Shown here piece after piece: positions 37,818 to 62,507 of a stretch of DNA of 64,000 bases (positions within the stretch are counted from its first letter, which is position 1; every line of letters starts with the position of its first letter). A program made the translations under genes and the position numbers. The notes beneath the pieces were generated by a model. The model was not told the origin of the DNA, ran no database searches, and saw only the letters and a list, made by a program, of their open reading frames with translations. The stretch is from an uncultured Bradyrhizobium sp. GTDB lineage: Bacteria; Pseudomonadota; Alphaproteobacteria; Rhizobiales; Xanthobacteraceae. The stretch spans positions 15,528-79,527 of the forward strand of contig NZ_CAXUNQ010000018.1 of assembly GCF_964252615.1 (NCBI RefSeq), in the 5' to 3' direction.

Positions 37818-37894
<77 letters not shown>

Positions 37895-39228: not shown

Positions 39229-39413
39229 GGCGGCCGTTCAGGGCGTCATTTAGCGGACGACGCCCGCCAATTCCGCAGGTCGAGAGCCGATGAGCATGTT
39301 TGCACCGTGCAAATCATGCGATATTGTTTTTTATCTATAACGTCCGCCGGACACTCGCAGCATCGGGCAATCGCCGCGTTTGCAGCCGATGCTGCCGTCA
39401 TTTGGAGAACCAT

Positions 39414-40574: not shown

Positions 40575-42205
40575 GCGCCCCGGATTCTGACAAAGCCCGC
40601 GGGATCGCCGACAAGGTGCCTTATGACAGTCCCGGCGCCTTGGAGATCGGTTTTTCGATTCCGCAAGCCTATAACGCCAGCCGTATCCTGTTCGACAATC
40701 TTTCTGCCGGCCGCGGCGACAGGCTCGCGCTCACCGGGCCCGGCGGAACGCGCACATATTCGGAGCTCTGCGCGGACGCCTCGCGATGGGGGCATGGCTT
40801 TACGTCGTTGGGCCTGCGGCGCGGCGATCGCATCCTGATGTTTTGTGACGATACGCCGGCTTATCCGGCGGCTTTGTTCGGCGCGGTGCGCGCCGGCTTC
40901 GTCCCGCTGCTGATCAACACATTGACGCCGCCGGATCTGCTGCAGTTTTATCTCGCGGATTCCGCCGCCTCGGTCGCGGTCGCCGATGCGGAGTTTTCTG
41001 CGCAGTTCGACGCCGTGGCCTGCAAGGATACCCAATTGCGGACCCTGATCGTCGTCGGCAGCCCGGCAGGCAGCGACGCGGTGCCGCACGCGGTAATGGC
41101 CGAGCAGTGGCTGCGGGATTTCCCCGCAGGGCTTGCAGAAGCCGGCACGCATCGCAACGAGATGGCATTCTGGATGTATTCGTCGGGCTCGACCGGGCGG
41201 CCCAAGGGCATCGTCCATCTGCAGCACGACATGGCTTACAGCGAAGCCGCGTTCGCACGCAACGTGTTGAAGCTCGAGCCGGACGACGTCTGCTTTTCGG
41301 TGCCGAAGATTTTTTTCGCCTATGGTTTTGGCAATTCCATCACCTTCCCGTTTTCCGTCGGTGCGACGACATTGCTGCTCCCGGGCCAGCCGAAACCGGC
41401 GGCGATCTTTGCGGCGATCGAGCGTTTTCGTCCCACCGTATTCTTCGGATTGCCGACGCTCTATACCTCGCTCACCAAGGCGGATGGCGCATCCACAGTC
41501 GATTTCTCGTCGCTTCGAATGGCATTGTCCGCCGCCGAGGTGCTTTCGTCAGACGTATTCGACGCTTGGAAGCGACTCACCGGCGTCGAGATCGTGGAAG
41601 GACTGGGCTCTACTGAAGTCCTTCACATCTACCTGTCCAACCGCCTGGAGAAGAAAAAGCCGGGCGCCGCGGGTGCGCGCATTCCCGGCTATGAAATCCA
41701 GTTGAAGGACAAGGACGGCCGCGACGTCGGCGACAACGAGGAGGGCATCTTGTGGGTGCGCGGCGATTCCAGCACGCCATTGTACTGGAACCGGCCGGAC
41801 AAGACCGCCGAAACCATCCGCGAGGCGGGGTGGATTTACACCGGCGACCGCTTCGTTCGCGACTGCGACGGCTTTTATTTCTTTCGCGGTCGTGCCGACG
41901 ACCTGATCAAGATATCCGGCCAATGGGTTTATCCGCTCGAAGTCGAGCTTTGTCTCGCCGAGCATCCGGACGTGCGCGAATGCGCCGTGTTCGCCGTCGA
42001 GCTGCCGGACCGGCGCATGACGCTGAAGGCCGCGGTGGTGATGAATGGCGGCGCGTATGACCCGATCGCTAGCACGAAGACGCTGCAGGACTATGTCAAG
42101 GCAAAGCTGCTGCCTTACAAATATCCGCGCGAGATCAGGTTTCTCGACGAGCTGCCGAAGACAGGTACCGGCAAGATCGATCGTCAGGCGCTGCCGAAGC
42201 TGTAG
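40571..42205 (+). CDS. benzoate-CoA ligase family (aryl-carboxylate--CoA ligase), AMP-forming
   Basis: 544 aa. Motifs: YNASRILFDN, WMYSSGSTGRPKGIVH, YTGDRF, GRADDLIKISGQWV, PKTGTGKIDR. Confidence 0.88.
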   Translation: MSAPDSDKARGIADKVPYDSPGALEIGFSIPQAYNASRILFDNLSAGRGDRLALTGPGGTRTYSELCADASRWGHGFTSLGLRRGDRILMFCDDTPAYPAALFGAVRAGFVPLLINTLTPPDLLQFYLADSAASVAVADAEFSAQFDAVACKDTQLRTLIVVGSPAGSDAVPHAVMAEQWLRDFPAGLAEAGTHRNEMAFWMYSSGSTGRPKGIVHLQHDMAYSEAAFARNVLKLEPDDVCFSVPKIFFAYGFGNSITFPFSVGATTLLLPGQPKPAAIFAAIERFRPTVFFGLPTLYTSLTKADGASTVDFSSLRMALSAAEVLSSDVFDAWKRLTGVEIVEGLGSTEVLHIYLSNRLEKKKPGAAGARIPGYEIQLKDKDGRDVGDNEEGILWVRGDSSTPLYWNRPDKTAETIREAGWIYTGDRFVRDCDGFYFFRGRADDLIKISGQWVYPLEVELCLAEHPDVRECAVFAVELPDRRMTLKAAVVMNGGAYDPIASTKTLQDYVKAKLLPYKYPREIRFLDELPKTGTGKIDRQALPKL

Positions 42206-42325
42206 CCTCTACGCCTCGACACACTCGCCGTCGTCCTCGCGCAGGCGGGCACCCATAGCTACCGTGCTCGCGGCTCGCGCATGATGGTTGCAACGTCTCA
42301 TTCCAATCGAAAATTCCGGGCGTAT

Positions 42326-42490
42326 GGGTCCCCGCCTGCGCGGGGACGACGATGGAGGATATCGCGGTCCACAGGAACCCGCCCTTCAACGAGTCGTTCT
42401 CGCGAAGGCGGAGACCCATAACCCGTTCCAAGCCATACATTCGACCGTCATCCTGAGGAGCCGCGCTTGCGCGGCGTCTCGAAGGATGGC
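42326..42490. repeat. REP-like hairpin elements, family E
   Basis: GTCCCCGC-CTGC-GCGGGGAC at 42327-42346, and CGTCATCCTGAGGAGCCGCGCTTGCGCGGCGTCTCGAAGGATGGC at 42446-42490. Confidence 0.55.
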
Positions 42491-42551
42491 CACGAGCGCG
42501 GTCGAGGCCATCATGCATTGGCGACTGCGCGGAGCCCGGCGGCGGTTCCAG

Positions 42552-43745
42552 CTAGCCCGCCAATCCCGTCCCGCCGTAGAGCCAGGCGAGGTCGTCGTAG
42601 TAATCTTCCGACGCCTTTGCGCTCATGATGGCGTTGCGGATGCGGGCATGTTCGCCGGCGGGGTGGTAGATGTGTTCGCCGATGGCGCGGGACAGCAATT
42701 GCACCCGCGCGGTGCGGGGAAAACGCTGCTTGTTATAGTTCTCAAGCGCGGTGACGGTATCGCCCGGCGACGCGCCCAACAGATACGACAGGCAGACCGC
42801 GTCTTCCAGCGCCATGCAGGCGCCCTGCGCGAAATACTGCATCATCGGGTGCGCCGCATCGCCGAGCAGCGCGACGCGGCCGTCGATCCAACGCTCGACC
42901 GGGTCGCGGTCGCATAGCACCCACAGCTTCCAGTTGCTGCCGTGACGGATGATGCTTTGTGCCCGCGCGTGCACGTGGTGGAAACCCTGCATGACCTCGT
43001 CGTCGGACACCGGTTGGCCCGCCACCGGCTCCGGCGCGTCGTTGTGGCAGGTGACGACGAGGTTGAACACCTTCCAGCCCGACAGCGGGTAGTGCACGAT
43101 GTGGCATTTGGGACCGGCCCACAGCGTGGCGGCGTTCCAGCGCAGATCATCCGGCATCTCCCCGGTCGGAATTACCGACCGGTAGGTAGTGTGGCCGGAA
43201 ACCCGCGGCGCGCCGTCGCCGACAAGCTGTTTGCGGATGTTGGACCATAAGCCGTCCGCGCCGATCAGCAGCGCTCCGGTGATGCCCTCGCCGGAGGCGA
43301 GGCGGGCCGTCACCGTGGAGCCGTCCTGATCGTAGCCGGTAACCTCGCTGTTCACCCGCAATTCGATCAGGCTGTGGTTCCGGCAGGCGTTGAGTAACAC
43401 GCCATGCAGGTCGCCGCGATGAACCACCGCATAGGGATTGCCGAAGCGCGCGCGGAAGGCGTCGCGCAAGTCGACATGGGTGATTTCCTCGGCGCTGAGG
43501 GCGTCCATCAGGCGAAGCCGGTCGATGTAAACCGCCATGCCGCGCGCGGCCTCGCCGACGCCGAGATAGTCGAAGGCATGAAATGCGTTGGGCCCGAGCT
43601 GAATTCCCGCGCCGATCTCGCCGAGCGTTGTGGCTTTCTCAAGCAAGATGGAACGCAAGCCTTTTTGCGCGAGGCCGAGTGCCGCGGCGAGACCGCCGAT
43701 GCCTCCGCCCGCGATCAGGACAGGCCGTGCGCTCACCGCCGACAC
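42552..43745 (-). CDS. 3-hydroxybenzoate 6-monooxygenase-like FAD hydroxylase (salicylate-hydroxylase family)
   Basis: Motifs: VLIAGGGIGGLAAALGLAQKG, GADGLWSNIR, LLGDAAHPMMQYFAQGACMALEDA. Start is GTG 43745, with GTG 43736 or TTG 43751 as alternatives. The specific call rests on the gentisate-pathway context. Confidence 0.8.
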   Translation of the reverse strand: MSAVSARPVLIAGGGIGGLAAALGLAQKGLRSILLEKATTLGEIGAGIQLGPNAFHAFDYLGVGEAARGMAVYIDRLRLMDALSAEEITHVDLRDAFRARFGNPYAVVHRGDLHGVLLNACRNHSLIELRVNSEVTGYDQDGSTVTARLASGEGITGALLIGADGLWSNIRKQLVGDGAPRVSGHTTYRSVIPTGEMPDDLRWNAATLWAGPKCHIVHYPLSGWKVFNLVVTCHNDAPEPVAGQPVSDDEVMQGFHHVHARAQSIIRHGSNWKLWVLCDRDPVERWIDGRVALLGDAAHPMMQYFAQGACMALEDAVCLSYLLGASPGDTVTALENYNKQRFPRTARVQLLSRAIGEHIYHPAGEHARIRNAIMSAKASEDYYDDLAWLYGGTGLAG

Positions 43746-43747
43746 CG

Positions 43748-44257
43748 TCAACCCGATTTCTTGAAATGTTCGAGGGCGTCCTCGGCCCGCAGCGGTACCC
43801 GCGACGCCTCGTTGTTGAGATCGACCAGCTGCGTCATCAGCGCCAGCAGGGTCTCGCGATCCTTCGGCTTCAGCGGCTGCAACATGCGCGCCTGCGCGCG
43901 ATCGACCGAGGGCATGATCGTGCGCAGCATGGCTTCTCCGGCTTCGGTCAAGGTGAGCAGCTTGACCCGCTTGTCCTCGCGCGCCGGCTTGCGTTGCACA
44001 TAAGCCTTCGTCTCCAGCCGTTCGATGACGTTGCCCAGCGTCGAACGGTCGAAGGCGATCACCGCAGAGAGCCTGGTCGCGTCGATGCCGGGATGGGTTC
44101 GAATAGCGACCAGTGCCGCGTATTGCACCGGCGTCAGGCCGCAGGCCCGGCACTCTTCGACAAAAATCGCAACCGCGATCTGCTGCATCCGGCGAAACAG
44201 ATACCCCGGCTTGGTGTAGACGGCATCCATCGTGACATCAGCGGCTTTATTCGGCAT
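43748..44257 (-). CDS. MarR-family transcriptional regulator
   Basis: Winged HTH: ..LTPVQYAALVAIRTHPGIDATRLSAVIAFDRSTLGNVIERLETKAYVQR. The start is ambiguous (44287, 44257 or 44230). Confidence 0.85.
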   Translation of the reverse strand: MPNKAADVTMDAVYTKPGYLFRRMQQIAVAIFVEECRACGLTPVQYAALVAIRTHPGIDATRLSAVIAFDRSTLGNVIERLETKAYVQRKPAREDKRVKLLTLTEAGEAMLRTIMPSVDRAQARMLQPLKPKDRETLLALMTQLVDLNNEASRVPLRAEDALEHFKKSG

Positions 44258-44876
44258 CGGGCTGCCGGTCGGGTGCGGCGTCCGCAAACGCCTGGACGAT
44301 CATGGCCGCGGCTTCGGCCTTCAGCAGCCGCGGAAACGCTTCAAGTTCGACACCAAAGCGACGCGCATTCGCAAGCTGCGGCACCAGGCAGAGATCCGCG
44401 ACGGTTGGCGCCGCGCCGAAGCAGAACGGGCCGGCTTCATCTGCGATTAGCGTCTCGCATGCGGCAAGGCCTTGGCGGTTGGCCCATGCCGCCCACTCGA
44501 TCACCTGCTCCTCCGGCAGACCGAGATGTCTTAGGCGTGCCAGCACTTTGAGATTCTGCACCGGATGGGTATCGCAGGCGAGCACCATCGCGAACGCGCG
44601 CACTTTTGCGCGACGCAGCGCATCCTGCGGCAGCAGCGGCGGGTCGGGATGGGTCTCGTCGAGCCATTCGATAATGGCGAGCGATTGGGTCAGGACGACG
44701 CCGTCGTCGTCAAGCGTCGGCACCAGCCCCTGCGGATTGATCGCGAGATAAGCGGGGTCGCGTTGTTCGCCCTTGCGAAGATGGTGCGGCAGGTGGTCGG
44801 CGGTCATGCCCTTCAAATTCAGAGCAATCCTGACCCGATATGACGCGCTGCTGCGAAAATAGCCGTGCAGCTTCAT
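44247..44876 (-). CDS. maleylpyruvate/maleylacetoacetate isomerase (zeta-class GST)
   Basis: ATG 44876 follows GGGAGG. Motifs: MKLHGYFRSSASYRVRIALNLKG, INPQGLVPTL, LTQSLAIIEWLDE. Confidence 0.88.
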   Translation of the reverse strand: MKLHGYFRSSASYRVRIALNLKGMTADHLPHHLRKGEQRDPAYLAINPQGLVPTLDDDGVVLTQSLAIIEWLDETHPDPPLLPQDALRRAKVRAFAMVLACDTHPVQNLKVLARLRHLGLPEEQVIEWAAWANRQGLAACETLIADEAGPFCFGAAPTVADLCLVPQLANARRFGVELEAFPRLLKAEAAAMIVQAFADAAPDRQPDAE

Positions 44877-44982
44877 CGCAACCTCCCGTTTTTTTGTTGA
44901 TACGGCTTTCTGCATTGACGCTACCCAATTTGTAAGTATGCTGTCAATTAATCCGAACAACAAGGACAGCGGGAGGCCGGTT

Positions 44983-46026
44983 ATGGATCATGCCGTACAG
45001 AAGACCCCGGAACGCGAAGCGTTCTATCGCAGGATCGACGGCGAAAATCTCACCGCGCTGTGGACCGTGATGGGCGACCTGATCACGCCCGAGCCTAGGA
45101 GCGGCTGCCGGGCGCATCTGTGGCGCTTCGACGCCATCCGTAATTACATGATGGAAGCCGGCCGGCTCATCACCGCCAAGGAAGCCGAACGGCGGGTGCT
45201 GGTGCTGGAAAATCCGGGGCTGCGCGGCCAATCGAAAATCACCACGTCCCTCTATGCAGGCGTGCAACTGGTGATGCCCGGGGAAGTCGCCCCGGCGCAT
45301 CGCCATAGTCAATCCGCGTTGCGCTTCATCCTGGAGGGCAAGGGCGCCCATACCTCGGTCGACGGCGAGCGGACCTTGATGGAGCCCGGCGATTTCGTCA
45401 TCACGCCGTCGATGAAATGGCATGACCACGGCAACCAGACTTCCGAGCCGATGTTCTGGCTGGACGGACTGGATATTCCGCTGGTGCAGTTTTTCGATGC
45501 ATCGTTCGCGGAAGGGTCTGATGAAGACGAGCAGAAGGTGACGCGCCCGGAGGGCGACAGCTTTGCGCGCTACGGCCACAACCTGCTGCCGGTCGATCTC
45601 AAGCGCGCCTCGCAGGCTTCGCCGATCTTCAATTATCCGTATAGTTACACGCGCCAGGCGCTGGAGCAGGCGAAAAAGCGCGAGGAGTGGGACCCCTGCC
45701 ACGGGCTGAAGCTGAAGTTTTCCAATCCCGCCACCGGCGATTTCGCGATGCCTACCATCGGCACCTTTATTCAATTGCTGCCGAAGCAATTCAAGACCGC
45801 GCGCTACCGTTCGACCGACGCCACGGTGTTTGCGCCGATCGAAGGCCGCGGCCGCTCGCGGATCGGCGAGCAGACGTTCGCGTGGGGCCCGCGCGATCTG
45901 TTCGTGGTGCCAAGCTGGCAGTGGGTCACCCACGAGGCCGACGAGGATGCGGTGCTGTTCAGCTTCTCGGACCGCCCGGTGCAGCAGAAGCTCGATCTGT
46001 TCCGCGAGGATCGCGGCAACGCGTGA
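44983..46026 (+). CDS. gentisate 1,2-dioxygenase (bicupin)
   Basis: ATG 44983 follows GGGAGG. Motifs: ..LYAGVQLVMPGEVAPAHRHSQSALRFILEGKGAHTSVDGE..GDFVITPSMKWHDHGN.. Confidence 0.9.
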   Translation: MDHAVQKTPEREAFYRRIDGENLTALWTVMGDLITPEPRSGCRAHLWRFDAIRNYMMEAGRLITAKEAERRVLVLENPGLRGQSKITTSLYAGVQLVMPGEVAPAHRHSQSALRFILEGKGAHTSVDGERTLMEPGDFVITPSMKWHDHGNQTSEPMFWLDGLDIPLVQFFDASFAEGSDEDEQKVTRPEGDSFARYGHNLLPVDLKRASQASPIFNYPYSYTRQALEQAKKREEWDPCHGLKLKFSNPATGDFAMPTIGTFIQLLPKQFKTARYRSTDATVFAPIEGRGRSRIGEQTFAWGPRDLFVVPSWQWVTHEADEDAVLFSFSDRPVQQKLDLFREDRGNA

Positions 46027-52896: not shown

Positions 52897-53156
52897 GGCG
52901 TGCCCTCCCTTATTGTGGTGCGACGCTAGTCCGTGGGGGTTCACCGCACAACGGGAACATTGCTTGCCGCTGCATCCTTCACCGCCGTCATCCTTCGTTC
53001 AAGATGCCGCGCAAGGCGCGGCTTCACAGGATGACGATCGTGCACGGGACTGGCATGCCAGTGAACAGGAACGCGTTTGACGATGCCATGAAGCTTGTTG
53101 CGCCTGCGTCAAAATGTGCCACACTCCTAATGCCGGAAACATGGGGGTTCGAAAAT

Positions 53157-54428
53157 ATGTCCAACAGGTTTACGCAATACATCCTGATCGCAATGGCCCT
53201 CGGCATTGTGATGGGGACGCTGGTCTTCAACTATCTTCCCGACCAGCGGGTGGAAATCGCGGCTGACGTAAACCTGGTCGCCATGCTGTTCCTGCGCCTG
53301 ATCAAGATGATCATCGCGCCTCTGGTGTTCGCAACCCTGGTCGGCGGCATCGCCCATATGGGCAGCGGCGCCAAGCTCGGGCGAATTTTCGCAAAAACCA
53401 TGGGATGGTTCGTCAGCGCGTCGTTCATTTCGCTGCTGCTCGGCCTGATCATGGTCAACCTGCTGCAGCCCGGTGCAAATTTTCCCGGCACGCTGCCCGC
53501 GGCGGGCCAGTCGACCGGCCTGCCGGTATCGGCGTTCTCAATCGAAAAATTCCTGACCCATTTGATTCCGACCTCGATCGCGGACGCGATGGCGCAGAAC
53601 GAAATCCTGCAGATCGTGATCTTCGCGGTGTTCTTTTCGGTCGCCATGGGCGCGATGCCGGAGCGCTCCAAGCCGATGCTGTCGCTGATCGACGACCTCG
53701 GCCATATCATGCTGAAAGTCACCGGTTACGTGATGCTGTTCGCGCCGCTCGCGGTATGGGCGGCGATCATGGCGACGGTGTCGAAGAACGGCCTTGGCGT
53801 GCTGTGGAAGCTGATCCAGTTCATGGGCGGTTTCTATTTGTCGCTGATGATTCTGTGGGCGATCCTGGTCGTCGTCGGCTTCATCGTCATCGGGCCCCGA
53901 TATAGTCATCTGCTGCGGCTGATCCGCGAACCGCTGATGATCGCGTTCTCGACCGCAAGCTCGGAAGCGGCGTATCCCAAGACGCTGGAGGGCTTGAACC
54001 GGTTCGGCGCGTCGTCGCGGATTTCCAGTTTCGTGCTGCCGCTGGGTTATTCGTTCAATCTTGACGGCACCATGATGTATTGTACGTTCGCGAGCATCTT
54101 CATCGCGCAGACCTATCAGATACCGATGTCGCTCGGCACCCAACTGGCGATGCTGGCGACCCTGATGATCACCTCCAAGGGCGTCGCTGGCGTACCCCGC
54201 GCATCCCTGGTGGTGATCGCCTCGACGCTGAGCCAGTTCGGCATTCCCGAGGCCGGGCTGTTGATGATCATGGGCATCGATACCTTCCTCGACATGGGGC
54301 GCAGCGCCACCAACGTGATCGGCAACTCGCTCGCCACCGCGGTGGTGGCGAAATGGGAAGGCGAACTTGCGCCCGTAGATGCGTCCGGACCTGACGAGGA
54401 ACTGGTCCCTGCGAGCGTTCCGGCTTAG
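53157..54428 (+). CDS. dicarboxylate/amino acid:cation symporter (DAACS family, DctA/GltP-like)
   Basis: Starts at ATG 53157. Motifs: ..FLRLIKMIIAPLVFATLVGGIA.., SSEAAYP, ..ITSKGVAGVPRASLVVIA... Confidence 0.9.
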   Translation: MSNRFTQYILIAMALGIVMGTLVFNYLPDQRVEIAADVNLVAMLFLRLIKMIIAPLVFATLVGGIAHMGSGAKLGRIFAKTMGWFVSASFISLLLGLIMVNLLQPGANFPGTLPAAGQSTGLPVSAFSIEKFLTHLIPTSIADAMAQNEILQIVIFAVFFSVAMGAMPERSKPMLSLIDDLGHIMLKVTGYVMLFAPLAVWAAIMATVSKNGLGVLWKLIQFMGGFYLSLMILWAILVVVGFIVIGPRYSHLLRLIREPLMIAFSTASSEAAYPKTLEGLNRFGASSRISSFVLPLGYSFNLDGTMMYCTFASIFIAQTYQIPMSLGTQLAMLATLMITSKGVAGVPRASLVVIASTLSQFGIPEAGLLMIMGIDTFLDMGRSATNVIGNSLATAVVAKWEGELAPVDASGPDEELVPASVPA

Positions 54429-54440
54429 GAGGCGAGAGCC

Positions 54441-55364
54441 ATGCGCCACCCTCTGAAGGGATGCACGCAGGCGGCAGGCCTGCTGCTCGCGGGGCTTGTG
54501 CTGACGGCGGCGGCGTCGGCCCAGACCGGTGAAGGGCTGAGCCCGACGCTCGCCGCCATCAAGCAGAGTCACGTGGTGCGGCTCGGCTACCGCGAAAGCT
54601 CGCCGCCGTTTTCGTTCATGGACCCGTCGAGCCGGCCGATCGGTTACAGCCTCGAATTGTGCGAGGCCATTGTCGACGAGATCGGCATCGAAGTCGACGA
54701 TGCCAGTTTGCGGATCGACTATGTCAAGGTCACCTCCGATGACCGCATTCAGGCGGTGCTGCAGAACAAGATCGATCTCGAATGCGGATCGACCACGGCG
54801 AACGCGGAGCGGGCCAGGCAGGTGGCGTTCTCGCCGCTGATGTTCGTGGCCGGCACCAAGCTGATGGTGCCGAAAGCGTCCGCCATCTCGGCGCCGAAAG
54901 ATCTGCAAGGCAAGACCGTGGTGGTCACCAAGGGCACCACCAACGAGCAGGCGATGCATGGCGTCGACAAGAAGTTTTCGTTGTCGCTCAACGTCGTCGC
55001 GTCGCCCGACCACGAGCAGTCCTACCAGATGCTGGTGGACGGCAAGGCCGATGCATTCGCCACCGACGACATCCTGCTCTATGGCCTGATCGCGCGCCAC
55101 AAGGCGCAGGACAAGTATAAGGTCGTCGGCGATTATCTGTCCTACGATCCCTACGGGATCATGTTCCGCAAGGGCGAACCGCAACTGAGCGCGGTGGTGG
55201 AGCGGGCGTTCCGCAAGCTCGGCTCCAACCGCGATTTGATTCCGCTCTATAACAAATGGTTCGTCGCACGGCTGCCGACCGGCGAGAAGCTCAACGTCGC
55301 AATCTCGCCGCAGCTCGAGGAAGCCTTCAAGGTGCTGGACGATTCGCCCGGCGCGAATAATTAG
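54441..55364 (+). CDS. glutamate/aspartate-type periplasmic binding protein (GltI-like, ABC-type SBP; orphan)
   Basis: 307 aa with a signal peptide. Motifs: VRLGYRESSPPFSF, IDLECGSTTANAERARQVAFSP, VVVTKGTTNE, AFATDDILLYG and YNKWF parallel E. coli GltI. Lies 12 nt after the symporter gene. Confidence 0.85.
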   Translation: MRHPLKGCTQAAGLLLAGLVLTAAASAQTGEGLSPTLAAIKQSHVVRLGYRESSPPFSFMDPSSRPIGYSLELCEAIVDEIGIEVDDASLRIDYVKVTSDDRIQAVLQNKIDLECGSTTANAERARQVAFSPLMFVAGTKLMVPKASAISAPKDLQGKTVVVTKGTTNEQAMHGVDKKFSLSLNVVASPDHEQSYQMLVDGKADAFATDDILLYGLIARHKAQDKYKVVGDYLSYDPYGIMFRKGEPQLSAVVERAFRKLGSNRDLIPLYNKWFVARLPTGEKLNVAISPQLEEAFKVLDDSPGANN

Positions 55365-55465: not shown

Positions 55466-56782
55466 CTAGAAAAACCTCAGTTCTTGCGCGCGCCCGCCGC
55501 CGACCGCGACCGCGTATTCGATCGCCAGAAACAATCCGCCGGCGACGAAGATTTTTCGGTCCGATGATTGGGCCAGCGCCGTGCTGACCTGCACCGCATC
55601 CTCGATCGTCGCCGCGATGCGAATCGTCGCGCTCGGATTCGCCCTCCGCGCCGCGGCAGCGATTGTCTCCGCGCCCGCGCCTTTGTGATATGCGCGGGTG
55701 CAGACGATGGTGTCGAACGCCGGCGCCAGCAGCGCTGCGATCTCGCCGGCCTTCTTGTCGTGCGAGGCGCCGGCGACCAGGATCCACCGCTCGGCGCCAT
55801 GGATCGCCTTCAGACTCGCAAGCGATTGGCGGATGCCATCGGGCGTATGGCCGACGTCGATGAGGGTGAGCGGCTCTTGCCGGATGATTTCGAGCCGGCC
55901 CGGCCAGCGCGTGCCGGCGAGGCCCGATCTTGCGGCGGCCTCCAGCGCCGCGGCATCTGCTCCCGGTTGCGTCCGTTCCCGCCAAAGCAAAAACAGCGCA
56001 ATCGCGATGGCGGCATTATTGAATTGAAAGCGGCCTGCCAGCCCGATGCCGAGCGAGCGGAAATCATGCGCGCCGAACCGGAAATCGAACCGCTGTTCGG
56101 CTGCCGACATGATTTCATTGCGGATTCCGATTCGGTCACGGACGAACAGGTTCGTTACATCGCGGTTGCGATTATATTCGGCCAGGTGCGGCGCCAGGCC
56201 ACGGCAGTTCTCGCCGTAGACGATGGTGCCGCCTGCCGCGCAGGCGTCGCTCTTGTCGGCGCAGATCAATTCCAGCGAATTGCCGAGCAGTTCGGTGTGC
56301 TCGAGATCAACCGATGTCACGCCGGTGTGGCGCGCGCCGGCCAGCCGCACCGGATCGTAACGGCCCCCGATGCCGGCTTCGAACACCGCGAAATCGCAAT
56401 CGGTTTCCTGGAAATACAGGCACGCCAGCGCGAACAGGGCTTCAAACGCGCCGAATTGCTGGCCGTGTCGCCGCGATATTGCGGCGATTGCGGTTCCGAT
56501 CCGCGCTGCCAGTCGCGCCAGTGCGCCGTCGCCGATCGGGATGCCGTCGACCTGAAACCGCTCGTTGAAGCGAAGCAGATGCGGCGAGGTGAACAGTCCC
56601 GTCCGCAGTCCAAAGGCGCGGCCGATGCCGGCACAGAACGCCGCCGTGCTGCCCTTGCCGTTCGACCCGGTGACGACGACCGAGATGCGCTGCAGCCTTG
56701 CGCGGTCGATCGCCAGCGCCTGGAGCAGGTCCGCCAGCCGCGCCAGGCAGACGCCGTCGCCGTATTTCGGCAGGTCGAACAC
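55466..56782 (-). CDS. FolC-type Mur-ligase family protein (folylpolyglutamate synthase/dihydrofolate synthase paralogue), function unknown
   Basis: Motifs parallel FolC throughout: VVVTGSNGKGST (P-loop), TSPHLLRFNERFQVDG, FEAGIGGRYDPV, VTSVDLEHTELLG, RWPGRLEII, LIDVGHTPDG and VAGASHDKK. The candidate GTG start at 56782 overlaps the TAG of the upstream gene by 1 nt. The longer ORF to 57067 is rejected. Confidence 0.8.
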   Translation of the reverse strand: MFDLPKYGDGVCLARLADLLQALAIDRARLQRISVVVTGSNGKGSTAAFCAGIGRAFGLRTGLFTSPHLLRFNERFQVDGIPIGDGALARLAARIGTAIAAISRRHGQQFGAFEALFALACLYFQETDCDFAVFEAGIGGRYDPVRLAGARHTGVTSVDLEHTELLGNSLELICADKSDACAAGGTIVYGENCRGLAPHLAEYNRNRDVTNLFVRDRIGIRNEIMSAAEQRFDFRFGAHDFRSLGIGLAGRFQFNNAAIAIALFLLWRERTQPGADAAALEAAARSGLAGTRWPGRLEIIRQEPLTLIDVGHTPDGIRQSLASLKAIHGAERWILVAGASHDKKAGEIAALLAPAFDTIVCTRAYHKGAGAETIAAAARRANPSATIRIAATIEDAVQVSTALAQSSDRKIFVAGGLFLAIEYAVAVGGGRAQELRFF

Positions 56783-57783
56783 TACAGAAGTCCCATCGCG
56801 GAAAAGGTGTGGCGCCAGATTTTCAGGATCAGGTCGCCCCGCCCGCAGTCCTCCAGCAGCCGGATCGACGGGTTGGAGTTGACTTCGATGACCCGTACCG
56901 GCTCCGGATCGCCTTCGATACCGGCGAACAGATCCACTGCGGCGACGCGCAGGCCCAGGGCGCCAGCTGCGCGTTTTGCCTGCGCGACCACGGCGCTTTC
57001 GGTGCGCGGCGATTCGAGAACCATGGTGCCGCCGGCGCTCCGGTTCATGCGTCCGGGAATTTCCCATTGCTCTCCGTCGGCCAATACGCGGTCGAACTCG
57101 GCGGCATCTGCCGGAGGCGCCGCCGCCGAAAGTCCGAGCGATTGCAGCTCAGAATTGTGTTTGGAGAGCAGTTCGCGGACTGTGCTGGCGCCGTTGCCGG
57201 CAAGCGCGGGCGGCGATTTCCGCACGGCATAGACGGCCTCGCCGTCGAGCAGAAAAATCCGGGTTTCAGTTCCCGAAACGACCGGTTGGATCAGAACCGA
57301 ATCGTAATATCGGGAGACGTCATCGAGATATTCGAGAAAACGCGCCTCGCCGTGAACGGCCCGCGCGAAATCGCCGCGCGATCCCGTCAGCGGCTTGGCA
57401 AAGGCCGAACCGCCCAATTCCCTGAAATAGTCCGACGCATTGCCCCGCTCATGACCGGGCGGACGATGCGCGCGATGCCGGTCATGCAGGAAGAAGTACC
57501 GGCCTCCGAGCGTCGGGACGCCGGCGCGTCCGAGAATGGCGTTGGTGAAGTATTTGTCGGTAGCCAGCGATGCCGCGGTCGCGTTGTTTTGCGGATACCA
57601 CGCACATCGTCCAGCCCCGAACGGGACCCGCTTGCCGCGTGAAACGATATTGAAGACAAGTCCGGTTCCGCCGTCGATGTCCTGAAAGGACAGTCCGAAT
57701 TCGGCGCAGGCATATTCGGCATAGATCGACTGGTCCGGGTAACAGGCCGGCTTTCCGGAACGAACATCCTGCAAGCATGGCAT
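56782..57783 (-). CDS. ATP-grasp ligase (RimK/GshB/cyanophycin-synthetase G-domain type), function unknown
   Basis: The last 333 codons of ORF 56782..58779, starting at ATG 57783. ..ASLATDKYFTNAILGRAGVP.., FAKPLTGSRG, RIFLLDGEAVYAVRKSPPALAGNGASTVRELL, GRMNRSAGGTMV and VIEVNSNPSI align by eye with CphA G-domain and RimK-type motifs. Confidence 0.75.
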   Translation of the reverse strand: MPCLQDVRSGKPACYPDQSIYAEYACAEFGLSFQDIDGGTGLVFNIVSRGKRVPFGAGRCAWYPQNNATAASLATDKYFTNAILGRAGVPTLGGRYFFLHDRHRAHRPPGHERGNASDYFRELGGSAFAKPLTGSRGDFARAVHGEARFLEYLDDVSRYYDSVLIQPVVSGTETRIFLLDGEAVYAVRKSPPALAGNGASTVRELLSKHNSELQSLGLSAAAPPADAAEFDRVLADGEQWEIPGRMNRSAGGTMVLESPRTESAVVAQAKRAAGALGLRVAAVDLFAGIEGDPEPVRVIEVNSNPSIRLLEDCGRGDLILKIWRHTFSAMGLL

Positions 57784-58050
57784 GGCGCACCCGGCCTTGA
57801 CGTTTGGATTCGAAAATCGATCCTTTCGAAACCGCAACCGGCATCGTAGCCGATGCCTGCCGGCCGATCCAGATTGCAAGCGGCTCGCATCGCTGATCCC
57901 GTCCGTGCAAACGTTTGACAAAGGCGCTGGACCTGACGCTGCGATTATTTTCATGTTAGCGTCCGGCCGGTTGCGAATCGGGATCGGCGGGTCCTGTTGG
58001 CCGCATCCCCGCCCGACCTGTCTTCGTCTGCTGCGCACCGGATTGGCTCG

Positions 58051-58683
58051 ATGCAATTTCAGAGAGCTCATGTCAGCATCGTCAGGTCGATCCGGCATGT
58101 CAGCCTGGTGCGGGACTGGCATCGCGCGCGTGGGACACGCCAACTGCCCGAGTTCACAAAGTTTGTTCCCAATGAGCGGGCCGGCGATGCCGCCGATCTG
58201 TCGATCAGCGATGTGGTGCGCGAGGATGGCAAGCTGTTTTATATCTGTCGGCAGGCCGGCAACCGCGTCGAGCAGATGTACGATGCGAGGATGCCGTCGC
58301 GGCATTTGAGCGATTGTCTCGATCCGGGCATGGCGGCGGCTGCAAAGCCGATCTGGGATGCCTGCGTCCTCAACCAGTTGCCGGTCTATGCGATCATTCC
58401 GCTGTCCGATCGGGACGGATGCCCGGTGACCGTCGAGCAGCTTTTTCTGCCCTACGCCGGTCACGGCAGCGCCGCCGAGGTGATGGTGGCGGCACTTTAC
58501 GCCTGCAGCACCGAAGGCCGGTTTGCCCATCACGGGCTGCTCCGCAGGCTTGCCAAGGTGCCGTTGCACTGGGCCGTCATCATCGATCCGGCAATCGCAG
58601 CCGCGCCGCGGCCGGCCCGTGACCCGGTCACGGAAATCGATGACGTCCTGCTCAACGACGGGGTTTCGTCCACGGCGCGGTAA
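58051..58683 (+). CDS. PAS_5 (DUF1457)-like PAS-fold protein
   Basis: Starts at ATG 58051. ..LVRDWHRARGTRQLPEFTKFVP..LFYICRQAGNRVEQMYDARM..PVTVEQLFLPY fits the small alphaproteobacterial PAS_5 family pattern. The call is from memory. Confidence 0.55.
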   Translation: MQFQRAHVSIVRSIRHVSLVRDWHRARGTRQLPEFTKFVPNERAGDAADLSISDVVREDGKLFYICRQAGNRVEQMYDARMPSRHLSDCLDPGMAAAAKPIWDACVLNQLPVYAIIPLSDRDGCPVTVEQLFLPYAGHGSAAEVMVAALYACSTEGRFAHHGLLRRLAKVPLHWAVIIDPAIAAAPRPARDPVTEIDDVLLNDGVSSTAR

Positions 58684-58836: not shown

Positions 58837-60495
58837 ATGCTGGCAACCGGACGGCCGGGGGATTCCATGGAAACGCTGATGACTCCTTTTTCGCCGCGTT
58901 TCATCGTGCTGACGATCTGTTGCGTCGTGACGGTGCTGCTGACCGGAATAGCGGTCGTGGACCACAAGGTGATCAACCTCGTCGTCATCCCGATCCTCAT
59001 TTTCGGCAGTCTGTCGGCGCTCGGTTTCCGCGATCTGCTGCAGCAAAATCACGCGGTGCTGCGAAACTATCCGATCTCGGCGCATATCCGCTTTCTGCTC
59101 GAAGAGATCCGGCCCGAGATGCGGCAGTATTTCTTCGAAAGCGAGAAGGACGGCATGCCGTTCAGCCGCGACACCCGCGCGGTGGTCTATCAGCGCGCCA
59201 AGATGGTGCTCGACAAACGGCCGTTCGGCACCCAGGAGAACATCTATGCCGAGGGTTACGAATGGATGCATCATTCGATGGCGCCGCGGCCGCATGCATC
59301 GGAAAAATTCCGCATCACCATCGGCGGGCCCGACTGCGCGAAACCCTATTCGGCGTCGGTGTTCAACATCTCGGCGATGAGCTTCGGGGCGCTCAGCCCG
59401 AATGCGGTGCGCGCCTTGAATGCGGGGGCCAAGAAGGGCGGTTTCGCTCACGATACCGGCGAAGGCGGCGTCAGCCCCTATCACCGCGAGAACGGCGGCG
59501 ACATCATCTGGGAGGTGGGCTCGGGCTATTTCGGCTGCCGCAACCGCGCCGACGGCACGTTCGATCCGCAGGAGTTCGCCCGCGTCGCATCCGACGACCA
59601 GATCAAGATGGTCGAACTCAAGGTCAGCCAGGGCGCCAAGCCCGGACATGGCGGCGTGCTGCCGGCGGCGAAAGTATCGGAAGAGATTTCAAGAATCCGC
59701 GGCGTCGGCATGGGCGAGGACTGCATCTCGCCGCCGTACCACAAGGCGTTCTCGACACCGCTGGAAATGATGGCCTTCATCGGCGAGATGCGGCGGCTGT
59801 CCGGCGGCAAGCCGGCCGGATTCAAGCTCTGCGTCGGGCACAAATGGGAATTCCTGGCGATCTGCAAGGCGATGATCGAGACCGGCATCTATCCCGATTT
59901 CATCGTGGTCGATGGCAATGAAGGCGGCACCGGCGCCGCCCCGCTGGAGTTCATGGACCATCTGGGCATGCCGATGCGGGAGGGCGTCAATTTCGTCCAT
60001 AACGCGCTGGTGGGCATCAATGTCCGCGACCGCATCAAGATCGGCGCATCGGGCAAGGTCGCCACCGCCTTCGACATCGCGCGCGCGATGGCGCTCGGCG
60101 CGGACTGGTGCAACTCCGCGCGCGGCTTCATGTTCGCGCTGGGCTGCATCCAGTCGCTGAGCTGCCATACCGATCGCTGCCCGACCGGCGTGACCACGCA
60201 GGACCCCTCGCGCAACCGCGCGCTGGTGGTTCCGCACAAGGCCGAACGCGTCTACAATTATCATCATGCCACGCTGCACGCGCTCGCCGAACTGATCGCG
60301 GCCGCCGGCCTCGATCATCCGCAGGACATCCGGCCGATCCATTTCACCCAGCGCGTCTCGGGCACTGAGGTCATGTCATTCGCGCGGCTTTATCCGTCGC
60401 TGCGGCCGGGCGAACTGCTGGACGGCACGCAGGATGCCCGCTTCAAGGACGCCTGGGCGCTGGCGCAGGCGGCATCGTTTTCGCCGGCATCATAA
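58837..60495 (+). CDS. FMN-binding glutamate synthase family protein (GltB FMN-domain homologue) with N-terminal TM helices
   Basis: Motifs: ..ISAMSFGALS..KGGFAHDTGEGG..VELKVSQGAKPGHGGVLP..IVVDGNEGGTGAAP..ASGKV..ALGADWCNSARGFMFALGC... The start could be 58837, 58867 or 58879. Confidence 0.88.
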   Translation: MLATGRPGDSMETLMTPFSPRFIVLTICCVVTVLLTGIAVVDHKVINLVVIPILIFGSLSALGFRDLLQQNHAVLRNYPISAHIRFLLEEIRPEMRQYFFESEKDGMPFSRDTRAVVYQRAKMVLDKRPFGTQENIYAEGYEWMHHSMAPRPHASEKFRITIGGPDCAKPYSASVFNISAMSFGALSPNAVRALNAGAKKGGFAHDTGEGGVSPYHRENGGDIIWEVGSGYFGCRNRADGTFDPQEFARVASDDQIKMVELKVSQGAKPGHGGVLPAAKVSEEISRIRGVGMGEDCISPPYHKAFSTPLEMMAFIGEMRRLSGGKPAGFKLCVGHKWEFLAICKAMIETGIYPDFIVVDGNEGGTGAAPLEFMDHLGMPMREGVNFVHNALVGINVRDRIKIGASGKVATAFDIARAMALGADWCNSARGFMFALGCIQSLSCHTDRCPTGVTTQDPSRNRALVVPHKAERVYNYHHATLHALAELIAAAGLDHPQDIRPIHFTQRVSGTEVMSFARLYPSLRPGELLDGTQDARFKDAWALAQAASFSPAS

Positions 60496-60542: not shown

Positions 60543-62507
60543 TCAGAACTCCCCGTGCAACCTTCCCGAGAAAACCGACACCGGTCCGCGGTCCGCATTG
60601 TAGGCCGGGTTGGTGATGAGCTGGTAATCGGCGGTCAGCGTGATCTGCCTGTTGAGCGCATAGGCGTAATAGGTTTCAAAGACCCGTTCGCGCCGGTAAT
60701 TGAGCGCGCCGTCGCCGATCAGCACGCCGAGCCCGCCGGCGGCGATGAAGTCGCGATGATCTTTCGAGAGCGCGTTGACCGCGCCGCCGATCCCGATGAC
60801 ATCGTCGGGCCGCCCCCAGCGATTGCCCTTGATCGAGACGCCGGTGGAGAGACTGGCGTCGATATCGGTGAACGCCATGATCTCGGTCTTGCCGTCGTTC
60901 CAGCTCCAGCGGCCGAACAGCCCGATGTCGTCGGTCAGCGCCTGCTCGAGGTTGAGGACGTAGCCGTATTTGATGCGGCCCTCGCGGGTCTGCGCAATGT
61001 CCAGATTGAAGGCGGGGTTGTTCAGCGTCTCCCGGTAGCTCCCGGAATAGGCGCTGTTCAGCCATGCGATGGTGCGCAGCTTGCCGGGTTGCGAGAACAG
61101 CGAATAGCGCGTCTCGAGCTCCAGCACGTATTCGCCGCGCTGAAATACCCGCATGTCGAAATTGTTCGAATTCGACGTGCCTTCGATCAGGAAATAGCCG
61201 GCGCGCAACGCCCATTGCTTCTGATTGAGTTCGGCGGTCGCGCCATAGGTCAGGCCGACCTTGTCGGCGGAGTAGTCGAACGCCCCGGGCGCCCACAGCG
61301 ACCAGTTCATGAAGTCCCTGCGGGTGTCCTTGGCGTAGGCGTTGCCGTCGAAAATATCTACCACGGCGAACTTGCCGGCCTGTAGCGTCAGGCGCGAAAT
61401 GTCGACCTTGCCCGTCAACTGGCCCGGCGCGCTGGCGAGCTCTTCCTGTTCGCCGCCAAACCCGAAGGTCTGCCGCACAAACAGCCGCGACGTGTTGTAA
61501 TGCGGGTAGGGGAAGTTGGATTTCTGCGCTTCCCCGTTCGGAAAACCCGCCGCACCGACGGTATCGTTCAGTCCGAATCCCTGCAGCAGTTCGGGGTTGT
61601 AATAGAGTTCGCCGCCTTCCCACAGCCGCATATTCAGGAACAGGCTGTTGCTCCAGGTCGCCTTCGCCTGCGGCGCCGGGGTCAGGCTGTTGGCGCCGCT
61701 GTAGGGCGCGCGGAAGCCGGGATAGCCCTGCGGCAGATAGGTGGTCTGGCCGTGAATCTCCCAGCGTTCGGATTGCGGATCGACCAACGATGCCAGCGGT
61801 GGCGCATTGGGATCGCCCGGCCAGTCGATCTTGCGATTGAGGCCGACGCGAAGCATCTGAAAGTTCAGCGTGGATGCCGTGCTCGCGCCGGAGTCGAACC
61901 GGACGCCGCCGTTCTGGAACCGGCTATAGAGATATTCGAGCCGCAGGCTCCAATGCGGCGCGAACGCGTATTCCGCGCCGGCGCCGGCAGCCCAGCCGAG
62001 CCGCATATCCAGCTTCTTTTCATCATTGCCGTCAGCCGGGGTGTTGAGAAAGCGCTCGCCGGTAAACGCCAGGCCGCCCGTGGCATAGAACAGCCAGGCT
62101 CCGGCCGCATAGCCAAGCCGGCCACGCACGGTGCCGACGAAATCCATTTTTTCGGTGACCCAGGACCTGGCCGTCGCCAATGTCGAAATCACGGAATTGC
62201 CGTCGATGTAATTGGGAAACGAAACGTCGGCTTCGAATCCGATTACGATCCGGGACGGCATCTGTACATTGTAGCCGATCTGCAACCCGCCGATCGGGCC
62301 GCCGAAGAAACTGCCTGCGGCAGCGGCGGCCGGATCGGTCAGCGTGGCGTTCGAAAATCCGCGGCCGAATCCGGCATGAGCGCCAAGATACAGCCCGTTC
62401 CAGTCGGTGGCGGGCTCAAAACGCGGCGCCTTGAGCGGAATGTCGGCCGCGGCCGCGCCGTCCAGCGACAGCACGCCGAGCGCCAGCCCCGCGAGGACCC
62501 GCTTCAT
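60543..62507 (-). CDS. outer-membrane porin: N-terminal Omp25/31-like beta-barrel fused to OprB-family carbohydrate porin
   Basis: 654 aa with a signal peptide. The N-terminal about 210 aa (..WNGLYLGAHAGFG..GGLQIGYN..LGWAAGAGAEYAF..WSLRLEYLYSRF) looks like a small 8-10-strand OMP. The rest (..WEIHGQTTYLPQGYPGFRAPYSGANSL.. to a C-terminal F) is OprB-like. Confidence 0.8.
   Translation of the reverse strand: MKRVLAGLALGVLSLDGAAAADIPLKAPRFEPATDWNGLYLGAHAGFGRGFSNATLTDPAAAAAGSFFGGPIGGLQIGYNVQMPSRIVIGFEADVSFPNYIDGNSVISTLATARSWVTEKMDFVGTVRGRLGYAAGAWLFYATGGLAFTGERFLNTPADGNDEKKLDMRLGWAAGAGAEYAFAPHWSLRLEYLYSRFQNGGVRFDSGASTASTLNFQMLRVGLNRKIDWPGDPNAPPLASLVDPQSERWEIHGQTTYLPQGYPGFRAPYSGANSLTPAPQAKATWSNSLFLNMRLWEGGELYYNPELLQGFGLNDTVGAAGFPNGEAQKSNFPYPHYNTSRLFVRQTFGFGGEQEELASAPGQLTGKVDISRLTLQAGKFAVVDIFDGNAYAKDTRRDFMNWSLWAPGAFDYSADKVGLTYGATAELNQKQWALRAGYFLIEGTSNSNNFDMRVFQRGEYVLELETRYSLFSQPGKLRTIAWLNSAYSGSYRETLNNPAFNLDIAQTREGRIKYGYVLNLEQALTDDIGLFGRWSWNDGKTEIMAFTDIDASLSTGVSIKGNRWGRPDDVIGIGGAVNALSKDHRDFIAAGGLGVLIGDGALNYRRERVFETYYAYALNRQITLTADYQLITNPAYNADRGPVSVFSGRLHGEF

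Follow-up and report, generated by a model that had tools for sequence, protein, structure and literature searches.

A translationally coupled pair of ATP-grasp and FolC-type ligase genes in Bradyrhizobium: a candidate two-ligase module

The gene pair, its junction and its conservation

The DNA analysed here, a stretch of 64,000 nt from an uncultured Bradyrhizobium sp. that is referred to in its entirety as the window, carries two minus-strand genes for ATP-dependent ligases, one of the ATP-grasp superfamily and one related to the folate enzyme FolC/FPGS, which share a single nucleotide:

57783..56782, minus strand: ATP-grasp amide ligase gene, first of the pair; 333 amino acids, ATG start, from the open reading frame (ORF) and its translation
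56782..55466, minus strand: FolC/FPGS-family Mur-type ligase gene, second of the pair; 438 amino acids, GTG start, a member of the paralogue clade called P here
56780..56784, minus strand: TAGTG stop/start overlap of 1 nt, the site of translational coupling as read from the sequence

The original prediction had described these genes as a translationally coupled ATP-grasp and FolC-type Mur ligase pair, and the junction, the family models and the conserved adjacency all bear this out. Reading of the ORFs reproduced the coordinates and frames: the ATP-grasp frame ends in ...CTG TAG, and the G of this stop codon doubles as the first nucleotide of the GTG start codon of the FolC-like frame (TAGTG). 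The latter frame remains open upstream to position 57067, where its translation is arginine-rich and typical of an out-of-frame reading, and the GTG at 56782 is the only in-frame ATG, GTG or TTG between this arginine-rich stretch and the P-loop. The lengths of the homologues agree with this start. Nearly all of the close FolC-like homologues listed have 436–441 residues, most of them exactly 438, and the partner proteins of distant phyla share the N-terminal start motif M-F-(D/G)-L-P-K-(F/Y)-G. The GTG start proposed earlier was thus retained, and with it the coupling. On the ATP-grasp side, more than 100 homologues have lengths of 331–339 residues, and each aligns over 100% of the 333-residue protein.

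The conservation of the pair was followed in a genome scan, in which one genome per species was used and only Bradyrhizobium-type loci were kept, and in a metagenome scan seeded with the FolC-like clade. The genome scan yielded 80 such loci, with ATP-grasp proteins 61–76% identical to that of the window, and in every one of them the ATP-grasp gene is immediately followed by the FolC-like gene. The metagenome scan added 73 further Bradyrhizobium-type loci, in which the ATP-grasp gene precedes the FolC-like gene wherever upstream sequence exists. Complete junctions were available from 138 Bradyrhizobium-type loci. The genes overlap by 1 nt in 60 of these (as TAGTG, TGATG or TAATG) and by 8 nt in 66 (NTGTTTGA), while the remaining 12 are spaced by 0–150 nt, so that 126 of the 138 junctions overlap. 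This adjacency is far above chance, and the expectation that adjacency and overlap would recur in related genomes was confirmed.

Both genes are under purifying selection, more relaxed than that on their flanks, and they evolve about twice as fast. The ratios of nonsynonymous to synonymous substitution rates (dN/dS, NG86 method) are ≈0.21 and ≈0.24 for the pair, compared to 0.12 for the flanking GltB-like and ADH genes, values that are approximate because dS is near saturation. Protein identity across the loci is 62–76% for the pair and 83–93% for the flanks.

The ATP-grasp protein and its FolC-like partner

All of the motifs originally quoted for the ATP-grasp protein (DKYFTN, RIFLLDGEAVYAV, GNGASTVRELL, NRSAGG and VIEVNSNP) are present in its sequence. 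No Pfam family matched it even at E ≤ 10, RimK included. Its best NCBIfam matches, at 66 and 57 bits, are to the G-domain region of cyanophycin synthetases, followed by N-acetylglutaminylglutamine synthetase (40 bits) and GshAB (34.4 bits), with RimK, MptN, Ddl and LysX lower still (about 16–28.5 bits), and every one of these matches falls far under its cut-off. The CphA1 model TIGR02068, which has a cut-off of 850 bits, gives 66 bits for the ATP-grasp protein and 30 bits for its FolC-like partner; the RimK family model TIGR00768 gives 28.5 bits (cut-off 143.4), the MptN model 25 (cut-off 350), the GshAB model 34.4 (cut-off 425) and the Ddl models 16–20 (cut-offs ≈243–262). The suggestion that the gene is neither a gshB nor a ddl therefore agrees with the NCBIfam models, where such matches reach 20–34 bits against cut-offs of 243–425. 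In sequence and predicted fold, the protein is closest to the G domain of cyanophycin synthetase and to the ATP-grasp module of GshF.

The best sequence match in the PDB is likewise a CphA1 (7lgn, E = 1.3e-8). An AlphaFold2 (AF2) model, built from a 68-sequence family alignment, had a predicted local distance difference test score (pLDDT) of 95.1 and a predicted template modelling score of 0.91. A Foldseek search with this model placed the GshF module 3ln6 and the G domains of CphA1/CphA2 (7wac/7wae) at the top (E = 1e-16 to 1e-11), and Ddl, PsnB, LysX/ArgX and RimK in the next tier (≈1e-9).

The functional residues of the G domain of Trichodesmium CphA1 (TeCphA1) have been described (PMC9427784), and the ATP-grasp protein was mapped onto them by HMMER alignment. 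TeCphA1 residues K220, K261, R309, N394, D431, E450 and N452 correspond to K77, K130, R175, N247, D284, E300 and N302, all of which are invariant or nearly so across the 68 family members. By this alignment, the residues predicted to handle ATP, Mg and the acyl phosphate are kept. Three positions differ. The P-loop histidine H267 of CphA is replaced by R136, R323 is replaced by K189, and R458, which binds the α-carboxylate of aspartate in CphA, has an equivalent (R308) only in the Bradyrhizobium clade and is not conserved in the family. The protein is therefore predicted to be an active ligase of the CphA-G/GshF sub-clade that is distinct from the cyanophycin synthetases.

The second protein is a true member of the FolC/FPGS family with the two-domain FPGS fold, and it contains each of the hallmarks first noted in it (GSNGKGST, TSPHLLRFNER, EAGIGGRYD and DVGHTP). 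It passes the FolC subfamily model TIGR01499 (249 bits, cut-off 162.65), as do the partner proteins of distant loci (233–269 bits), and fails the equivalog models for bifunctional FolC, NF008101 (124.7 against 360 bits) and NF047860 (164.2 against 700 bits). The PgsB/CapB model TIGR04012 was absent from the NCBIfam matches of the window protein at E ≤ 0.01. Its best solved relative is the Lactobacillus casei FPGS (1fgs, E = 1.2e-42), and alignment to this structure shows conservation of the P-loop, the Ser-Pro of the omega loop (TSPH; S73/P74), the Mg-binding E143, the His of the DxEH motif, the carbamylation-site lysine K185, R300, and D313 and H316 of the DxxH motif. These catalytic motifs (P-loop GxNGKGS, TSPx, Glu, His, Lys and Arg/Asp/His) are invariant across clade P. 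The TSPH omega loop is kept, as is an aromatic residue at the position of L. casei Tyr414; we take this position and the omega loop (with Phe75) to be the folate-binding sites of the L. casei enzyme.

The AF2 model of the FolC-like protein has a pLDDT of 89.3, and the first 16 Foldseek ranks are all FPGS or FolC structures (E = 4e-27 to 3e-22, template modelling (TM) scores 0.66–0.78). MurE, MurF and MurC appear only from rank 17 (≈1e-14), and no CphA chain is found among the top 50 matches. This ranking therefore identifies the partner as FolC-type, rather than as an equivalent of the MurE-like M domain of CphA1. In source databases, homologues of the two proteins are annotated as “DHFS/FPGS”, “cyanophycin synthetase”, “RimK-type ligase” or “hypothetical”.

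Distant relatives and genomic surroundings

A bit-score matrix separated the FolC family into three clades, all of which pass TIGR01499: the housekeeping proteins encoded next to accD, clade P, which includes the window protein, and a further clade, Q. The window protein scores 82–103 bits with two alphaproteobacterial accD-linked FolC proteins, 135–143 bits with two acidobacterial ones, and 204–330 bits within clade P. Compared to housekeeping FolC, clade P proteins have an N-terminal LPK(F/Y)GDG, EAGIGGRYDP(V/T)R in place of E(V/T)GLGGRxDATN, DKxD in place of HKAGIxK and DVGH(T/S)P in place of DGGHN, together with a conserved C-terminal extension that ends in ...E(L/M)xF(F/L) (...ELRFF).

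Clade P genes coexist with an accD-linked folC in four loci (loci carry numbers with the prefix L). In L083 and L095, which show the typical alphaproteobacterial trpBA-accD-folC / addAB-trxA synteny, the pair lies between trxA and a convergent canonical folC-accD-trpAB operon, while in L114 and L170 a P/Q cluster abuts accD-folC. Clade P is therefore not the sole folC in those genomes, and the prediction that the FolC-like protein is not an orthologue of the housekeeping enzyme is supported by its separate clade and by this coexistence. The acidobacterial arrangement adds a third ligase, of clade Q: in L114 (which clusters with a protein from a metagenome-assembled Blastocatellia genome), L170 (Candidatus Angelobacter) and L150 (Terriglobia), the P gene is preceded by a Q gene to which it is translationally coupled, and an ATP-grasp gene lies nearby. 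Up to three FolC-family genes (housekeeping, Q and P) and the ATP-grasp gene were seen at L114 5593-10903, L170 3042-8317 and L150 1353-5010. The cluster adjoins accD in L114 and L170; L170 also has a Peptidase_C26 gene (gamma-glutamyl hydrolase family) at a distance of about 5 kb. The housekeeping folC of L114 is immediately followed by a gene for a CphA-G-like ATP-grasp, which reaches ≈150 bits on the cyanophycin synthetase models. A comparable gene is found downstream of the housekeeping folC in L095, separated from it by a 2OG-Fe(II) oxygenase gene. This link between FolC-family and CphA-G-like ATP-grasp genes, seen in two phyla, hints at a function in folate or cofactor tails.

At E ≤ 1e-3, 1808 relatives of the ATP-grasp protein came from an exhaustive search of the cluster representatives; many are stand-alone proteins of about 330 residues, with identities down to 27%. 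Distant gene contexts were taken from contigs encoding such members and from the metagenome scan. An ATP-grasp gene followed by a FolC-like gene, overlapping or closely spaced, was found in L083, L087, L088, L089, L090, L094, L095, L176, L119 and L124. Apparent single-ORF fusions in L119 and L124 proved to be an artefact, in that the FolC frame is open upstream in high-GC DNA and the ATP-grasp is encoded in another frame. An ABC transporter encoded in L087 falls in the same 90%-identity cluster as a protein of Achromatium sp. WMS3, so L087 is gammaproteobacterial; close relatives of its ATP-grasp protein are annotated from Symploca and other Cyanobacteria. L090 carries a match to the mmgR RNA family.

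The genes around the pair differ in each lineage, and no recurring third gene was found across lineages; the downstream genes of L088 and L176, which had been candidates for one, are not homologous to each other. In L087 (2747-4566), a 274-residue protein without a Pfam match is encoded 2 nt before the ATP-grasp gene, and in Achromatium sp. WMS3 a protein of the same type is fused to the ATP-grasp (P0490, KOR32407.1, 606 residues). The 274-residue protein may be a lineage-specific third component.

Other ATP-grasp relatives occur in different settings. A stand-alone Bradyrhizobium paralogue of 325 residues, ≈40% identical (L085/L086, 8001-8978), is flanked by genes for an AMP-binding ligase and a phosphoenolpyruvate carboxylase and has no Mur-type partner. 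The relatives in L091-L093 follow ABC-F genes. P0339 (1042 residues) begins with an ATP-grasp, followed, as judged by eye, by an amine-oxidase-like flavin adenine dinucleotide (FAD) region and terpene-cyclase-like repeats.

The surroundings of the pair in the window include the following features:

57784..57996, minus strand: intergenic region upstream of the pair, the presumed location of the promoter
53004-55364, plus strand: SDF-family dicarboxylate/amino-acid symporter and SBP_bac_3 binding protein genes, forming an insertion/deletion cassette
57997-58683, plus strand: PAS_5-domain ORF, divergent, upstream of the pair (Pfam E = 4e-5)
58837-60495, plus strand: stand-alone Glu_synthase-domain flavin mononucleotide (FMN) protein (GltB-like), 552 amino acids

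The intergenic region has no Rfam match at E ≤ 1, and no riboswitch or other known RNA was found upstream of the pair in eight related loci at gathering score. Neither a sigma-70 promoter nor an internal terminator stood out above the shuffled background. Most related loci have a conserved inverted repeat, GCAATTAAC...GTTAATTGC, upstream of the pair, which may be an operator or promoter; the window lacks it. In loci L005-L043 the repeat takes the form GCAATTAACTTGC-N20-24-GCAGTTAATTGC(C) and lies ≈60–100 nt upstream of the ATP-grasp start, and it is missing both from 57784-57996 of the window and from L004, the closest relative of the window. A sigma-54 promoter was considered for the conserved upstream element and dropped, as the spacing was inconsistent.

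The neighbours of the pair are the SDF symporter, the SBP_bac_3 binding protein, the Glu_synthase-domain FMN protein and an OprB porin, and the 64 kb contain no other FolC-family or related ATP-grasp gene. The symporter and binding-protein cassette is present in 57 of 84 syntenic loci with sufficient downstream sequence and missing from the other 27, in 20 of which the ADH gene follows the FolC-like gene directly. The glutamate/aspartate uptake genes had already been placed outside the operon, and their absence from 27/84 loci marks them as dispensable neighbours; a functional link to the pair was rejected on this count. The GltB-like gene is found upstream and divergent in 73/73 Bradyrhizobium-type loci, at a distance of 1.1–3.7 kb and with other genes inserted; within one genus such constancy carries little information and may reflect either a functional link or mere shared gene order. 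The PAS_5-like ORF, present in just 4 of the 73 syntenic loci, is a lineage-specific insertion.

Elsewhere in the window, the porin gene (60543-62507, minus strand) encodes an outer-membrane protein of 654 residues with an N-terminal OMP_b-brl domain and a C-terminal OprB carbohydrate-porin domain. The region 39300-46026 resembles an aromatic-acid (gentisate-type) catabolic cluster, as judged from ORF translation and synteny with the Pfam-annotated L002, and contains two FAD monooxygenases, an AMP-dependent ligase, a MarR regulator, a GST-like isomerase and a cupin dioxygenase. The only Rfam match at gathering score in the 64 kb is a tRNA gene (37818-37891, plus strand). The defence-island-like context of L176 had raised the possibility of a defence role, which was dropped: none of the PADLOC anti-phage defence models matched either protein or the L176 pair.

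Possible function and comparison with known systems

Both enzymes are intact by sequence, under purifying selection, obligately paired and distinct from the housekeeping enzymes. In our reading, the two genes would thus encode a dedicated and accessory set of two co-translated ATP-dependent carboxylate-amine ligases. ATP-grasps of the GshB, GshF and CphA-G types acyl-phosphorylate a C-terminal α-carboxylate and add an amino acid to it. FolC/FPGS enzymes act on the γ-carboxylate of an N-acylated terminal glutamate, or on the benzoate carboxylate of dihydropteroate, and add L-glutamate. By this family chemistry, the ATP-grasp protein would attach an amino acid to a C-terminal α-carboxylate after phosphorylating it. 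The FolC paralogue would in the same way join L-glutamate, or a close analogue of it, either to an aryl carboxylate or to the γ-carboxylate of a terminal glutamate that is N-acylated. Because both carboxylates are available on a terminal N-acyl-glutamate, the coupled pair could build α/γ-linked, possibly branched chains: with both ligases working on the two carboxylates of one acidic terminus, the product would be a short or long glutamate-type chain. In this scheme, substrates, order of action and product are all extrapolated from the families.

Our preferred reading, which we hold tentatively and with a probability of roughly 0.45, is that the pair is a dedicated two-ligase module that builds an α/γ-linked acidic chain on an acceptor. 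The occurrence of the same pair in unrelated gene contexts of several lineages argues for a self-contained module, and the acidobacterial arrangement, in which a third FolC-family ligase (Q) is coupled to P and an ATP-grasp, fits stepwise chain building. The two confident AF2 models, each of which matches its own family, were also counted as support for two predicted ligases. CofF is one ATP-grasp ligase that extends the glutamate tail of a cofactor. MptN and MyfA/MyfB do the same and provide a precedent (PMC8141765, which lists CofF among its references), and methylofuran carries a branched α/γ-polyglutamate whose branching enzyme is still unidentified (PMC8141765). The proximity to folate genes in two phyla, the retained TSPH omega loop and the aromatic residue at the Tyr414 position were likewise counted in favour. 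A small-molecule acceptor, in the form of a folate-like cofactor or its polyglutamate tail, is favoured over a free storage polymer, but is itself a doubtful assignment.

Several observations weigh against this reading. By NCBIfam scores, the ATP-grasp protein is nearer to CphA-G/GshF than to the RimK/CofF/MptN α-glutamate ligases, and some of its close relatives (L085/L086, L091-L093) have no Mur-type ligase. The motifs adjacent to the acceptor site differ from those of housekeeping FolC (DATN to DP(V/T)R, HKAGIxK to DKxD, and the C-terminal extension). There are no folate, pterin or cofactor genes near the pair in the window, L087, L088, L090 or L176, and no folate-related riboswitch was found by Rfam in the upstream region of the window or in eight related loci. 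Proximity to folC is seen in two independent lineages only (L083/L095 and L114/L170), and could equally be a trace of local gene duplication.

Four other explanations were considered. In the first, close to the original suggestion, the ATP-grasp protein might make an α-linked Asp/Glu backbone whose side-chain carboxylates are decorated by the FolC-like enzyme, so that the pair would act as a split, cyanophycin-like polymer synthetase whose product, a free branched polyamide, serves to store nitrogen or carbon. The closeness of the ATP-grasp to the CphA1/CphA2 G domains in sequence and fold and the conserved equivalents of TeCphA1 R309, N394, D431 and E450 are consistent with this, as is the 1:1 coupled expression, which mimics the fused G-M architecture; both proteins are labelled “cyanophycin synthetase” in source databases, and some loci have peptidase genes close to the pair (two M13 in L088, Peptidase_C26 in L170). 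However, the partner is FolC-type and not MurE-like, with no CphA chain in its top 50 fold matches, the polymer-tethering N domain is absent, the CphA model reaches 66 bits against a cut-off of 850, an arginine replaces His267, Arg458 is not conserved across the family, and the gene contexts examined showed neither a cyanophycinase nor an isoaspartyl dipeptidase gene. We regard such a synthetase as unlikely. A variant, marginally less credible to us, would make the pair a two-subunit synthetase of an undescribed branched polyamide, a glutamate-based analogue of cyanophycin with an α-backbone made by the ATP-grasp and γ-carboxylates acylated by the FolC paralogue, spread over Alphaproteobacteria, Gammaproteobacteria, Cyanobacteria and Acidobacteriota; the pair might also represent an ancestral state, not yet fused, of the polymerases that combine an ATP-grasp with a Mur ligase. 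It is also conceivable, if improbable, that each ligase adds one residue to a small free di- to tetrapeptide, such as an osmolyte of the N-acetylglutaminylglutamine-amide type or a γ-glutamyl peptide. N-acetylglutaminylglutamine synthetase is the third-best NCBIfam match of the ATP-grasp protein, but the score is only 40 bits (cut-off 569). ATP-grasp modules of the GshF type produce tripeptides, variable contexts with exporters, racemases and peptidases would fit a stand-alone metabolite, and two or three ligases per cluster resemble the stepwise Mur pathway; yet the pair has no consistent association with GNAT, amidotransferase or other tailoring genes, and we know of no FolC-family enzyme that acts on a free small peptide.

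Modification of a protein, with the ATP-grasp extending a C-terminus in the manner of RimK and the FolC-like enzyme introducing branches, has a much lower probability. RimK, LysX and ArgX are among the structural relatives of the ATP-grasp, the FolC-like clade has a conserved C-terminal tail (...P.E(L/M)xF(F/L)), and the 274-residue protein precedes the ATP-grasp in L087 and is fused to it in Achromatium sp. WMS3. Against these stand the RimK family model (28.5 bits compared to 143.4), the lack of any carrier or target protein conserved beside the pair and the fact that, to our knowledge, no Mur-type ligase acts on proteins. Least probable is that the FolC-like gene is simply the folC of this genome and the ATP-grasp a gshB, a ddl or an unrelated neighbour. 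The protein does score above cut-off on TIGR01499, JGI labels its homologues DHFS/FPGS, and no other folC lies within the 64-kb window. Nevertheless, the equivalog folC models failed, the protein belongs to a separate clade with only ≈25–30% identity to the accD-linked folC with which it coexists in four loci, its gene evolves at about twice the rate of its flanks, and the GshB and Ddl models gave 20–34 bits against 243–425. A housekeeping folC, gshB or ddl was rejected on family-model scores, clade separation and coexistence with an accD-linked folC in those four loci.

FolC is usually regarded as a folate enzyme with one function, and DHFS/FPGS or “cyanophycin synthetase” are the routine annotations of its paralogues. 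The analysis delineates a distinct FolC clade, conserved across phyla and mostly paired with a CphA-G-like ATP-grasp, and in Acidobacteriota with a further FolC-family ligase. The pairing suggests that abundant soil bacteria possess a so far uncharacterised ATP-dependent chemistry for a peptide, a polyamide or a cofactor tail. With a folate-like acceptor, the two genes would be candidates for non-canonical folate tails; we know of no gene assigned to the α-linked folylpolyglutamates of E. coli. With a free polymer as product, the pair would constitute a biopolymer synthetase that is new and of interest to biotechnology. In either case it is widespread, compact and directly testable by co-expression. 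Full-text literature searches found no study of the pair and no published characterisation, in line with the earlier remark that it has no obvious known product. What is new is the unfused module of an ATP-grasp and a FolC-type ligase; the proteins themselves belong to known superfamilies, and nothing yet shows that their chemistry is unprecedented.

Judged by family tests, the pair appears to lie outside CphA1, housekeeping FolC, RimK/CofF/MptN, GshB, Ddl and PgsB. The FolC-like protein shares with FolC/FPGS (L. casei 1FGS/1JBW; E. coli 1W78) the fold (TM 0.66–0.78), the catalytic motifs and passage of TIGR01499, but it belongs to a distinct paralogue clade with altered acceptor-side motifs and a C-terminal extension, and the clade P gene is paired with another ligase gene in most loci examined. 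GshF (GshA/GshB; 3LN6), the top structural match of the ATP-grasp protein, contains a module that extends a γ-glutamyl peptide by an amino acid at its C-terminal carboxylate. In contrast to GshF, there is no γ-glutamylcysteine ligase domain or gene here, and the model scores only 34 bits against 425. CofF, MptN and MyfA/MyfB are also ATP-grasp enzymes and add α-linked glutamates to cofactor side chains; they differ in being RimK-type, and none is paired with a FolC-type ligase. Unlike in the methylofuran and tetrahydromethanopterin systems, no genes for either cofactor are present in the window.

The closest parallel is with CphA1 (N-G-M; PDB 7LG5, 7WAC), and the original description of the pair as a split, cyanophycin-synthetase-like enzyme stands only as an analogy in architecture, an ATP-grasp plus a Mur-superfamily ligase. 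It does not extend to the details: the partner is of the FolC/FPGS type, there is no N domain, the score is 66 bits against 850, H267 is replaced by an arginine and R458 is not conserved. The M domain of CphA1 is MurE-like and adds arginine to the side chain of aspartate, whereas the pair consists of two separate proteins with a FolC-like partner. Both systems combine an ATP-grasp of the same sub-clade with a Mur-superfamily ligase at 1:1 stoichiometry. The G and M sites of CphA1 act on the α- and side-chain carboxylates of aspartate, respectively, and the same logic is proposed for the two ligases of the pair.

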